Assembly (NCBI GenBank): GCA_002796205.1
Contig: PCWO01000050.1
Coordinates: 3,090-36,037 of the forward strand
Reading direction: 5' to 3'
DNA length: 32,948 nt
DNA from: Candidatus Liptonbacteria bacterium CG11_big_fil_rev_8_21_14_0_20_35_14
GTDB taxonomy: Bacteria > Patescibacteriota > Minisyncoccia > UBA6257 > XYB1-36-10
Shown: positions 23,272-27,776 of the stretch, piece after piece
Layout: every line of letters starts with the position of its first letter
Numbering within the stretch: the first letter of the stretch is position 1
Notes under the pieces: generated by a model
Database searches by the model: none
What the model was told of the DNA's origin: nothing
What the model saw: only the letters and a program-made list of their open reading frames with translations
Position numbers and translations under genes: made by a program

Positions 23272-23392
23272 ATGATATCCCGGCAAATCCTACTTTCCCC
23301 ACATTTAGAGTATCATCGGAATTATATGATTTCACTACCGAGTTCGGAATGGAATCGGGTGGGACACACATAATTAAATCACCGAGAAATCA
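23272..23392 (-). rRNA. rrf: 5S ribosomal RNA
   Basis: Minus strand contains GTCCCACCCGATTCCATTCCGAACTCGGTAGTGAAA ... GGGGAAAGTAGGATTTGCCGGGA, matching the universal 5S core. The terminal helix is extended by a 14-bp stem, GTTTTGAGCAATGAT (23403-23389) / ATCATTGCTCAAAAC (23276-23262). Mature ends are therefore uncertain by about 10 nt. Confidence 0.88.
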
Positions 23393-23433: not shown

Positions 23434-23555
23434 CGCTCATGGTTGAGACGACTGCTCGTTCATTAGTACTCCTTGGCTAAACACATTACTGTGCGTACAC
23501 CTAGAGCCTATCAACGTGGTAGTCTTCCACGAGAACATATATCTTATCTTGGGAG

Positions 23556-23591
<36 letters not shown>

Positions 23592-23668
23592 TCCGAACAT
23601 AGCTACTCGGCATTTCACCTGGTGGCAAAGCCGATAGACCAGTGGTTCGTCCAACTCGGTCCTCTCGT

Positions 23669-24295
23669 CGCTTACACTTAATTAGTGTTTATTCCCCTAT
23701 TTCTAGGGGCGCAGACTATATCTTCACCCAATCTTTGGAACTTAGAAGTTTAACTTCATATTCTTTAAATTTCTCTTAAATTTTTAAGAGGATTGGGGAC
23801 GGCGTATTAGTATTATTAAATAATACTCTCTCCTTTCGGATCAGTCGTTACGGGGTCAAACCTAAAATTTTCACAAGGTCTTCTTTACTTTTCTTTCTAT
23901 GTGATTTGTAATTTTCACTTTGAATAGACAAAATCCAATTTATAATTTTTTTAAGATCCGATTTGTTTAAATCTGATATTTTTTTGGATTCTAATAAAGA
24001 TGATGTTTTTAACATAATTTCAGCCTGTTTTTTCTTAAACTTAAGATCTCGTCTTTTTTTAACTTGAATCATTAAACTACCATCTCCATCAAGAAAGCCT
24101 GCTATATATGCCATATTTATTTTAGATTGACTTCCCACGGTATTGCCTTAAAAATTATTGGTCCTCAAGTATTATACCATAAGAGACGGACCGTTGTCAC
24201 TTATGAGCCGTGATACTGACCATATAATTTATGAAGGTTTCACCGTTATTAGCCGTTTTGTCATCATGAATTACTTCATGAAGTAGCAATTTTTT
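23669..24295 (-). mobile_element. Group I intron inserted in the sarcin-ricin loop of 23S rRNA (between U2656 and A2657, E. coli numbering by my alignment)
   Basis: Exon sequence ...GCTGACTCTAGT | ACGAGAGGACCGAG is contiguous only after removing 627 nt. The upstream exon ends in U and the intron ends in G. P1 is possible (exon UAGU with intron GCUA). The group I core S element GAAGATATAGTC lies at 23711-23725 and the R-like GTAACGACTGATC at 23837-23851, with GACUG/UAGUC forming P7. Confidence 0.8.
23848..24138 (-). CDS. Internally deleted LAGLIDADG homing-endonuclease remnant (96 aa), intron-encoded
   Basis: It retains the [12 protein letters not shown] motif and the C-terminal helical region (KKKQAEIMLK...). 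Roughly 60 residues of beta-sheet DNA-binding core are missing relative to the neighbouring intron ORF and to I-CreI. The track start is GTG; an ATG start lies at 24114. The stop overlaps the intron R element. Confidence 0.7.
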   Translation of the reverse strand: MGSQSKINMAYIAGFLDGDGSLMIQVKKRRDLKFKKKQAEIMLKTSSLLESKKISDLNKSDLKKIINWILSIQSENYKSHRKKSKEDLVKILGLTP

Positions 24296-24358
24296 ACTAG
24301 AGTCAGCTTCCCTCAAATATTTAACGCCTGCAGTAGATAGAGACCAACCTGTCTCACG

Positions 24359-25062
24359 CATGTATTCCCATTATTACTAATGGCATTGGACTATAAATTC
24401 ATCCTTAATCTATTAAGGAGGCTAACGTTTAGTCTCTACGGGTGTCATTATACGTTTTTTTCTATTTTTAGAATAATTTAAATCTTTATAGATATAAATT
24501 AAATCTAAAAGTTTTTGAAAATCATTTTCATTTTTAACAGATTTTTTAGCTTTTATAATTTTAAGCATTAAATCTGCTTGTTTTTTCTTAAGAATTAAAA
24601 ATGGAGAAATATTTTTAATAAAAGATTCAATGTCATCTATACGATTTATTGAATATTCTAATATTCCATCTTTTCTTAATCTTAATTTTCCAAAACCAAT
24701 TAAGTTGCATATTTTCTTAAAAGCTTCTTTATCTTTTTGAGCTTGAAAAAGAACTATATATAAAGCTATTTAAAAATCATATTTATATGATTTATTAGGT
24801 TTAGCTCTAGCATATATACTACCGTCTCCATCAAGGAAACCGGCTATGTATGATTTCTTAATTGGTGTAAGTGATTTTAACATATAAGACTTCCCTCGGT
24901 ATTATCCTAACATATGACAGGTTATTTTAAAATAACTTATCACTAGGACTTCACCGATATAAGTTAGCTTTACACATAGAAATTACTTTCTATGGCCGCC
25001 GTGTATGATGTCATTTGCCTCGGGCTCAGACTGTTTAAAAGCCGATAAATATCCGCTTCTAA
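24359..25062 (-). mobile_element. Group I intron at the L2593-type (I-CreI-type) site of 23S rRNA
   Basis: Exon sequence GGGTTCAGACCGT | CGTGAGACAGGTTGG is contiguous after removing 704 nt. The upstream exon ends in U and the intron ends in G. P1 is possible (exon CCGU with intron GCGG). R element GTAGAGACTAAACG lies at 24426-24439 and S element AATTTATAGTCC at about 24388-24399. Confidence 0.82.
24422..24883 (-). pseudogene. I-CreI-like single-motif LAGLIDADG homing endonuclease with one in-frame TAA (codon 38)
   Basis: Manual translation: [152 protein letters not shown]. The internal stop is at 24770-24772. The ORF is absent from the track because the stop splits it. Confidence 0.78.
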
Positions 25063-25283
25063 ACGGTCTGAACCCAGCTCGCGTACCTTTTTAATTGGCG
25101 AACAGCCAAACGCTTGGGACCTTCTCCAGCCCCGCGCTAAGATGAGCCGACATCGAGGTGCCGAACCTTGCCGTCGCTATGGACGCTCGGGCAAGACTAG
25201 CCTGTTATCCCCAGGGTAGCTTTTATCCGTTGTCTCCGACCTTCCTGTAAAGGTTCGTCGGGTCATTAAGTTCCGCTTTCGCG

Positions 25284-25314
<31 letters not shown>

Positions 25315-27187
25315 CAGCTTTTGCCTTTATACGACCAACTCGATTTCCATCCGAGTCTAGCTGACCTTTAAACTCCTCCGTTACTTTTTAGGAGGATTCC
25401 GCCCCAGAAAAACTGCCCACCAGGCACTGTCTCCATAAGGTTTACCAAATAGATTCCTTATAGGTTAGACCTTGCCCCAATAAAGAGTGGTATTTCATAT
25501 TGCGACTCCATCCCGACCGAAATCGGAACTTCAAAGTCTCCCACCTATGCTACGCATTAAAAGAACAAGACCAATACCAAGCTACAGTAAAGCTCCTGGG
25601 GTCTTTTCGTCCCACTGCAGGTAACCCGCGTCTTCACGGGTATCGTATTTTCACCAAGCTTCTCGCTGAGACAGTTCTCCAGTCGTTACACCTTTCGTGC
25701 GCTCCGGAACTTACCCGGAAAGGAAATGCGCTACCTTAGAACGGTTATAGTTACCGCTGACATTGACGAGGGCTTCGGTCAGTCAGCATCTACCCGAAAG
25801 CAGATACCGCCAACGTTAACCTTCTCGCATCGGTCAGGTGTCACCCCCTATACATCCACTTACGTGTTAGCAGGGAGCTGTGTTTTTGATAAACAGTCGC
25901 CAGAGATTCTTTAGCTGCGGCCACCCGAAGGTGGCAGGCCTTATTGCGAACTTACGGCCGCTATTTTGCCGAGTTCCTTAGCGAGATTTCACTTGTTCCC
26001 CTTGGGCTACTCGCCCTACCCACCGGTGTTGGTTTGCGGTACGAACACCTATGCCTTAACTCTAGAGGCTTTTCTTGGAAGGCTCTGCGATTGAATCACT
26101 TGAGGGGCTTTAGCCCTCAAATTTTCGCCGGATTTTGGAGGTTGCTATTAAAAGCAGATAAGTCGATTTACGGCTTACCCATCCTACAATCAAGCGACGC
26201 CAAACCATTAAGGCGATCAATCTCTTTTCCTCCGTCCCCTCATTGAAAAACATAGGTGGGGCTGGAATATTAACCAGCAATCCATCGCGTGCGGCTTTCG
26301 CCATACACTAAGGGTCGCCTAACCCGTGGCTGATTGCCAGTGCCACGGAAACCTCGGGTTTTCGGGGTGCGGATTTCTCATCCGCATTGTGGTTACTCAT
26401 GCCAACATTCTCACTTCTATACGCTCCAGCAATTTTCACAAATCACCTTCAGTGCATATAGAACGCTCTCCTACCACTTATATTTTAAAAAAATATAAAT
26501 CCGCAACTTCGGTACTACGCTTAGCCCCGTTACATTCTCGGCGCATCTTGCCATTGAATAGTGAGTTGTTACACACTCTTTAAAGGATGGCTACCTCTAA
26601 GCCCACCTCCTATCTGTCTATGGCACTATACTACCTTGCATGCACTTAGCGTAAATTTTGGGACCTTAGTTTGCGATTAGGGCTGTTTCCCTTTTGACCA
26701 CGGAGCTTAGCCCCCGCAGTCTAACTCCTGAGTTATATTGTATGGTATTCGGAGTTTGATTGGTCTGGCGAAGTTTCCTCCTACTCAGACCATCCAGTGC
26801 TCTACCCCCACACATAAACACTCAAGGCTAGTCCAAAAACTATTTCGGAGAGAACCAGCTATTACCAGATTCGATTAGCTTTTCACTCCTTACCACAGGT
26901 CATCCGAAGGCGTTAAACGACCTAACGGTGCGGGCCTCCCCCTACCTTTCGGTAGGGTTCACCCTGCCCATGGCAAGCTCATCTGGCTTCGGGTCTTATC
27001 CATATCCTAAACGCGCTATTAACACTCGCTTTCGCTACGCCTTCCTTCCGTAGAAGTTAAACAAAGGATATACATAAACTCGTTGGCTCATTCTTCAATA
27101 GGCACGGCGTCATCCACGATAAATCGGGACTCCGCCTCCTTGTAAGCATACGGTTTCAGGTTCTATTTCATCGGCCTCACCGGCCTG

Positions 27188-27224
<37 letters not shown>

Positions 27225-27776
27225 ATCACTAAAGATATTTAGCCTTACGAGACAGTACTCGCAGATTCCCTCAAGGTTTTCTGCCCTCGAGGTACTCAAG
27301 AATATATACAAAAAAGTGAGCACGTTTTCGTCTACAGGACTTTCACCTTTTTTAGTTCGGCTTTCCAGCACGACTCGACTAACGTGTCCATTTATAACTT
27401 TTCTCTTTCCTCAACCTAAATCATTAAACTAGGGTGATCTAGGTTGAAAAAAGAATGTATATACCTTACAACCCCAAAAATTAGTAAACTAATATTTTGG
27501 TTTGGGCTCTTCCCTTTTAACTCGCCGCTACTCAGGGAATCACTATTTGTGTTTTCTTTTCCTCCGCTTACTGAGATGTTTCACTTCAGCGGGTTTGCAT
27601 ACATAAAATGTATAATACAGGTTTACTGTACTGGGTTTCCCCATTCGGAAATCTCCGGATCGTAGGTTGCTACACACCTCCCCGAAGCGTATCGTCGTTA
27701 CGCCACGTCCTTCATCGCTCTTTTAGTGTCTAGGCATCCACCGTATGCCCTTATGCAATCGTCTCAACATTGAGAA

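Follow-up and report, generated by a model that had tools for sequence, protein, structure and literature searches.

We analyzed a stretch of 32,948 nucleotides from Candidatus Liptonbacteria bacterium CG11_big_fil_rev_8_21_14_0_20_35_14 (contig PCWO01000050.1 of assembly GCA_002796205.1), which we will refer to as the window, and we found that its 23S rRNA gene is interrupted by two inserts. The gene lies on the minus strand (23442..27768), as do all of the other features that we describe, and it spans 4327 nt with both inserts or about 2996 nt once they are spliced out. The first insert (intron 1; 24359..25062; 704 nt) follows exon U25063 and terminates with G24359. It lies in helix 93 of domain V, at the I-CreI site, or L2593. 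The second insert (intron 2; 23669..24295; 627 nt) follows exon U24296, terminates with G23669, and splits the sarcin-ricin loop (helix 95 of domain VI) at AGU|ACGAGAGGACC, or L2656. The micro-exon between them (24296..24358) has just 63 nt, which correspond to E. coli positions 2594-2656, with the last U aligning to U2656. Its sequence, CGUGAGACAGG...CUCUAGU, holds helix 94, preceded by the 3' half of helix 93 and followed by the 5' half of the sarcin-ricin stem-loop. The two inserts are very probably mobile group I introns with related cores that bear R/S elements, inserted after U2593 and U2656 of a single 23S gene. Only one large-subunit (LSU) rRNA gene was found in this genome (619 kb in 51 contigs, 92% complete), so the introns must be removed if working ribosomes are to form.

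To identify the boundaries, we read the minus strand and compared the spliced sequence with E. coli rrlB in an alignment; this alignment, together with the pairing of helix 1 (GUUGAGACG/CGUCUCAAC), also gave the 3' end of the gene. Exon 1 ends with ...GGGUUCAGACCGU at 25063, which aligns to E. coli U2593, and exon 3 begins with ACGAGAGGACC at 23668. Removal of both inserts restores CCGU-CGUGAGACAG as well as AGUACGAGAGGACC, the universal sequence of the sarcin-ricin loop. The boundaries are unambiguous: alternative cuts fail to restore CCGU|CGUGAG and the sarcin-ricin AGU|ACGAGAGGACC. A previous interpretation of the window, made from its letters alone (the sequence-only reading), had proposed two precise interruptions of 704 and 627 nt, a 63-nt exon at 24358-24296, and a spliced gene of about 2996 nt. 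The lengths and the exon coordinates are exact, and the boundaries aligned to rrlB give the same size for the spliced gene. Its placement of the inserts in domains V and VI was also right, given that they fall in helix 93 and in the sarcin-ricin loop.

We then compared this region to 40 relatives by BLAST and mapped motifs in the resulting loci. In a relative from the same family (G004:C34), the gene runs uninterrupted through both sites, and the exons are 95-96% identical. The first insert is present without the second in G002; the second is present without the first in G039; and both are present in G017, G018, G021, and G038. Overall, an insert at 2593 is missing from 7 of 20 relatives, and most lack one at 2656, so these are precise interruptions rather than expansion segments. 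Expansion segments were the competing view raised by the sequence-only reading, which had also proposed looking for intron-less alleles in sibling genomes; close relatives do have them. Across 301 genomes of the same order, the distribution is patchy: BLAST detects homologues of intron 1 in at least 22 and homologues of intron 2 in at least 52. The two-intron arrangement, with an exon of 62-63 nt, is present in at least 11 other loci or assemblies of this order, including a single-contig genome of 800 kb.

Both inserts contain the helices of a group I intron. In intron 1, the internal guide is CACGGCGG (24996..25003). Its GCGG pairs with exon CCGU to form P1, with a U.G pair at the splice site, and its CACG pairs with CGUG of the 3' exon to form P10. 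The guide adjoins P2 on the 5' side and is conserved across all subtypes of L2593 introns. At one locus (L026; we number homologous loci in this way), the guide and the exon have changed together, to GCGUU and AACGU. GGCGG is the sole possible guide in L027 and L028, which are minimal relatives. Another P1 that we had picked out by eye, in which CCGU pairs with GCGG at intron positions 7-10, was rejected: that GCGG is not conserved, and it lies inside the hairpin at the 5' splice site that is described below.

The core of intron 1 (24389..24994) is supported by covariation, and the same helices appear in the Rfam alignment of the homologue L008. The helices are P2 (24994-24975), P3 (24968-24963 with 24426-24421), P4 (24957-24953 with 24900-24896), P5 (24949-24944 with 24909-24904), P6 (24895-24893 with 24442-24440), P7 (24434-24430 with 24393-24389), which crosses P3, and P8 (24419-24402). 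They are followed by P9 (24383-24368), which has a GUAA loop. P7.1 and P7.2 are absent from this intron.

In intron 2, the helices extend across 23694..24299 and, except for P7.1 and P7.2, are supported by covariation. P1 is formed by exon UAGU (24299-24296) and the guide GCUA (24287-24284), and it is invariant in 25 of 25 sequences. The other helices are P2 (24281-24264), P3 (24256-24252 with 23803-23799), P4 (24246-24242 with 24141-24137), P5 (24237-24234 with 24149-24146), P6/P6a (24136-24129 with 23857-23852), P7 (23846-23842 with 23718-23714), P8 (23797-23727), and P9 (23709-23694). Two putative hairpins between P7 and P3' (23840-23831 and 23826-23810) would fit P7.1 and P7.2; these were read from the sequence only and are outside of the pair counts.

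To quantify the covariation, we used two alignments, in each of which the P6 loops' open reading frames (ORFs) were removed by hand and the window's copy served as the structural reference. The first was a MAFFT alignment of 22 L2593 introns, either ORF-less or ORF-trimmed, and it was scored on the structure derived from the window's copy (P10, P2 to P6, P7, P8, and P9). The second contained 25 L2656 introns and was scored for P1 to P5, P6/P6a, P7, P8, and P9. In the first alignment, 91.6% of cells were paired, and in the second, 92.7%; using the window's copy as the reference somewhat favors the named structure by this measure. It does not favor double changes, and both sides had changed in 26 of 50 pairs for L2593 and in 25 of 49 pairs for L2656. 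No shuffle was as good as the actual alignment (0 of 500 in each case), and when partners were slid, just 32-43% (L2593) or 36-46% (L2656) of cells were paired. Both introns have double changes in P2, P3, P5, P8, and P9; intron 1 also has them in one pair of P7, and intron 2 in P4 and P6a. The covariation is clear in P3 of intron 2, which appears as ACGGC/GCCGU, UCAGC/GCUGA, CCGGC/GCCGG, or UUGGC/GCCAA.

The ends of the introns are also consistent. We recovered 30 distinct L2593 inserts, each of which is preceded by an exon U, and 32 distinct L2656 inserts, each of which has A as its first base after exon ...UAGU. The last base is G in every insert of both sets. As for the Rfam model of group I introns (Intron_gpI, RF00028; gathering score 50), ORF-less homologues of intron 1 score 77.2, 63.4, and 52.9 bits. 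The Rfam alignment of L008 agrees with the model's consensus in the J6/7-P7 and J8/7-P7 segments. Group I identity, which the sequence-only reading had proposed, is thus supported both by the defining features of sequence and structure and by covariation of the helices in homologues at the same sites.

Each intron has a gene for a LAGLIDADG endonuclease of the I-CreI type in the loop of P6, and both genes are broken. First, ORF 1 (24422..24883; 153 codons) has a 3' end that passes through P6' and P7 and into P3'. Its best matches in PDB are I-CreI and I-MsoI (E ~4e-21), and when it is read through, it matches LAGLIDADG_1 from Pfam (PF00961; E = 2e-12). Codon 38 is an in-frame TAA (24772-24770), where the intact homologue at L012 has CAA. 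We also considered whether TAA might be a sense codon, but this is ruled out, as TAA terminates 166 of the 221 long frames of the genome. Second, ORF 2 (23848..24138) is a remnant with an open frame of 96 codons. It starts with a conserved GTG inside P4'/P6 and stops inside J6/7. Alignment with the homologue at L018 shows that it is without 63 codons that are present in the intact homologues of 159 amino acids. The missing codons would follow the LAGLIDADG helix and precede the C-terminal helices, and by comparison with I-CreI they would encode the DNA-binding sheet. The remnant still matches LAGLIDADG_1 (PF00961; E = 1e-4), and an intact homologue matches I-CreI, I-MsoI, and I-CvuI with E values of 1e-12 to 1e-15. 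The two endonucleases are about 32% identical to each other. Neither ORF encodes an intact protein of the I-CreI type (about 150-170 amino acids with one LAGLIDADG motif and a beta-sheet saddle that binds DNA); intact versions are found in relatives, at L012 for the ORF 1 type and at L018 for the ORF 2 type.

The same conserved blocks are present in the cores of both introns. A tree of 59 cores places the 30 L2656 introns on one side of a branch with an SH-aLRT (Shimodaira-Hasegawa-like approximate likelihood ratio test) value of 99, and each of the window's introns is nearest to introns at the same site in other genomes. This does not support a recent copying of one intron into the neighboring site; an ancient common origin of both introns is possible. 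One L2656 intron (L083) has motifs of the intron 1 type, namely CCCCGUAGAGACU and AUAGUCC rather than CCCCGUAACGACU and AUAGUCU. It is the first branch inside the L2656 group and may represent an intermediate or a recombinant.

We also searched named genome records with the 14-mer TGACGAGAGGACCG. This search was unspecific: most of the matches were chance matches in GC-rich genomes. Among the 80 loci listed, at least 11 are true L2656 introns, and all 11 are from records with labels that belong to the candidate phyla radiation (CPR), namely Paceibacterota or Parcubacteria, Magasanikbacteria, Yanofskybacteria, Daviesbacteria, and Saccharibacteria. A match from Coriobacteriia (L085) was rejected, as it is coding DNA and not an L2656 intron.

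The 5' splice site of intron 1 lies within another conserved structure, a hairpin of 23 bp (25022..25075) that we call the clamp. Exon positions -13 to -1 (25075-25063) pair with intron positions 29-41 (25034-25022, ACAGUCUGAGCCC), and intron positions 1-10 pair with positions 19-28. The fold has an energy of -33.6 kcal/mol (z = -9.8). Of the cells in 21 distinct homologues, 94% form pairs, and both sides have changed in 11 of the 23 pairs. In particular, exon position -6 is either G or A and has the matching C or U as its partner in 22 of 22 sequences, and exon position -8 behaves likewise. The clamp is a selected structure, and it must open or rearrange for catalysis.

In its topology, the long helix might simply be P1 together with an extension (P1ex). 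However, the splice-site U faces an A in the clamp of 17 of 21 sequences and a G in the other 4, a P10 guide adjoining the long helix is absent, and the minimal relatives L027 and L028 rely on GGCGG only. Another idea, which we offer tentatively and consider possible rather than probable, is that selection maintains the first 41 nt of the L2593 intron as an accessory domain that would compete with P1. This domain might be an exon clamp, or it might be a conformational switch that times or proofreads the use of the 5' splice site during ribosome assembly. In the literature that we examined, we did not find a description of this kind of 5' splice-site clamp for any group I intron, nor is there one in the part of the survey of Tsurumaki et al. 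(2024; PMC11270868) that was available to us. The clamp is the sole part of these findings that could open up new RNA biology.

Two structural subtypes of L2593 introns coexist within this one bacterial order. The subtype at L003-L009, L019, and L026-L029 contains P7.1 and P7.2, and instead of the clamp it has only a short GAACCC that is complementary to exon GGGUUC. The other subtype has the long clamp and is without P7.1 and P7.2. The window's copy and L012 have the clamp, yet they group with the subtype that bears P7.1 and P7.2 in the tree of cores.

If these are group I introns, then we infer that they splice themselves. Each ribozyme would fold independently after transcription. The guide would pair with the last four bases of the exon (GCGG with CCGU in intron 1 and GCUA with UAGU in intron 2), leaving a U.G wobble where the exon ends, and an external guanosine would attack the 5' splice site. 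The terminal G of the intron would then enter the pocket in P7, and ligation of the exons would rebuild helix 93 and the sarcin-ricin loop. Because the guides differ (CACGGCGG versus GCUA), inclusion of the 63-nt exon should be favored over skipping. At the level of DNA, we infer that homing occurred in the past: the introns would originally have spread by means of a LAGLIDADG endonuclease with a single motif, of the I-CreI type and encoded in the P6 loop, which cuts intron-less alleles. With the subsequent decay of the endonucleases in this genome, by a nonsense codon in one and the deletion of 63 codons in the other, the introns would have become fixed passengers. This fits a late phase of the homing cycle, in which selection still preserves the ribozymes intact, since the only 23S gene relies on them, and the two nuclease genes decay.

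Four observations weigh against group I introns that splice in this way. First, the window's own introns have no match to Intron_gpI from Rfam, either at the gathering score or with E ≤ 1; this is likely due to the ORFs of about 450 nt that are inserted in P6. Second, the best ORF-less homologue of intron 2 (L025) scores just 37.4 bits against RF00028 (E = 3e-8), which is below the gathering score; the model is unable to bridge the P7.1/P7.2 insert. Third, P10 of intron 2 has at most 1-2 bp. Fourth, the clamp occupies the exon CCGU that P1 requires, and so it is a very stable competitor of P1.

The last of these observations bears on another explanation, that the ribozymes have decayed: they would no longer splice themselves and would need a factor from the host or one acting in trans, or one of them would be removed together with its neighbor. 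Besides the competing helix of -33.6 kcal/mol that P1 of intron 1 faces, this would agree with both ORFs being broken and with intron 1 being without the P7.1 and P7.2 of other L2593 introns. However, all of the core helices that we counted are intact in the window's copies, which are the reference rows of the two alignments. Also, the clamp and the absence of P7.1 and P7.2 are common to about 20 homologues, so they are not private defects, and the gene affected is the only 23S gene of the genome. We consider decay of the ribozymes improbable.

A slightly less probable explanation still is that these are intervening sequences that RNase III excises without rejoining the ends, so that the 23S rRNA would function as three pieces, one of just 63 nt. 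Such inserts are also thought to occur in the 23S genes of CPR bacteria, according to the 2024 survey (PMC11270868), and the 23-bp helix at the start of intron 1 is long enough for RNase III. However, the known sites of intervening sequences are in helices 25 and 45 (PMC11270868), and these inserts are in helices 93 and 95. An intervening sequence requires only a stem that joins its two ends. The two ends of each of these inserts do not pair together; instead, a group I core of ten helices is maintained by covariation, and every copy has U at position -1 and a terminal G. A nick within the sarcin-ricin loop would probably harm the loop as well. Finally, although chimeras are frequent in the rRNA regions of metagenome bins, it is very improbable that an assembly artefact joined rRNA pieces from different populations, as the region is in the middle of a contig of over 36 kb and the same arrangement is present in the 11 other assemblies, one of them the single-contig genome.

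Group I introns at these sites are already known. In a survey of 348 CPR 23S genes, Tsurumaki, Sato, Saito, and Kanai (J Bacteriol, 2024; PMC11270868) reported inserts in 82% of the genes and up to 16 inserts per gene. The recurrent group I sites that they named as rich in LAGLIDADG_1 include 23IS12 (position 2593) and 23IS14 (position 2657), and 23IS14 is described as unreported from other bacteria (PMC11270868). Sites 2593 and 2657 are therefore published hot spots in the CPR, and the window does not add a new kind of element; it is a further case of the heavy load of introns in CPR rRNA genes. Those inserts share with the window's introns the host group, the sites, RNA that resembles group I introns, and ORFs with a single LAGLIDADG_1 domain. 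In contrast, the survey classified its inserts by the Rfam model only, whereas the fold in the window rests on covariation and Rfam misses both introns; also, both of the window's endonuclease genes are broken.

Cyanobacteria and chloroplasts are other known hosts of L2593 introns with LAGLIDADG genes of a single motif (Haugen et al. 2007; PMC1995217). Intron 1 shares the site GU|CGUGAGACAG, which is the target of I-CreI, and a homologous LAGLIDADG gene with the chloroplast introns of Chlamydomonas (Cr.LSU, encoding I-CreI) and Monomastix (encoding I-MsoI) and with the cyanobacterial L2593 introns. As in cyanobacterial rRNA introns (PMC1995217), the ORFs overlap helices of the core, and this is true of both ORFs in the window. 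However, the cyanobacterial L2593 introns have P7.1, P7.2, and a short P5 (PMC1995217), while the window's L2593 intron is without P7.1 and P7.2 and has the 41-nt domain of the clamp at its 5' end. Unlike in the classical L2593 introns, the endonuclease gene has a nonsense codon.

Very short exons between group I introns have precedents too. In the 23S gene of Coxiella burnetii, the introns L1917 and L1951 flank an exon of 34 nt (PMC10136302), and in orf142 of phage Twort, an exon of 23 nt lies between two introns (PMC10136302; PMC1995217). Exon skipping was seen in both Coxiella and Twort, and distinct guides suppress skipping in engineered pairs of introns (PMC10136302). The window resembles Coxiella in that a very short exon lies between two group I introns of a single bacterial 23S gene. 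However, the sites in Coxiella are in domain IV, rather than in domains V and VI, and the introns in Coxiella belong to different subgroups (IB2 and IA3), while those in the window have related cores and differing guides.

The introns also affect annotation. The sequence-only reading had warned that automatic rRNA callers would misreport this gene, and the bacterial LSU model from Rfam does give a truncated call, at 25022-27768 only. More broadly, standard rRNA callers truncate the 23S gene, and gene callers would list the remnants of the endonucleases as small proteins. The Rfam call stops precisely where the clamp ends on its 3' side, 41 nt inside intron 1, and the LSU model calls neither the micro-exon nor any part of the final ~227 nt of the gene.

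Five of the loci with L2656 introns are from records labeled as Candidatus Saccharibacteria (L100, L113, L114, L117, and L136). These are full group I introns of 300-820 nt. The 2024 survey reports almost no introns in the rRNA genes of Saccharibacteria (PMC11270868).

Downstream of the 23S gene is a 5S rRNA gene (23278..23386; RF00001, 56 bits). Rfam did not find a 16S gene in the window (1-32948), and the 23S-5S pair stands apart from any small-subunit (SSU) gene. Separation of the 23S and 5S genes from the SSU gene is common in CPR genomes. Lastly, domain I of the 23S gene contains about 60-70 nt more than the Rfam consensus (~27355-27425), as an unaligned insert near position 312 of the model. 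This extra stretch looks like an expansion rather than an intron.

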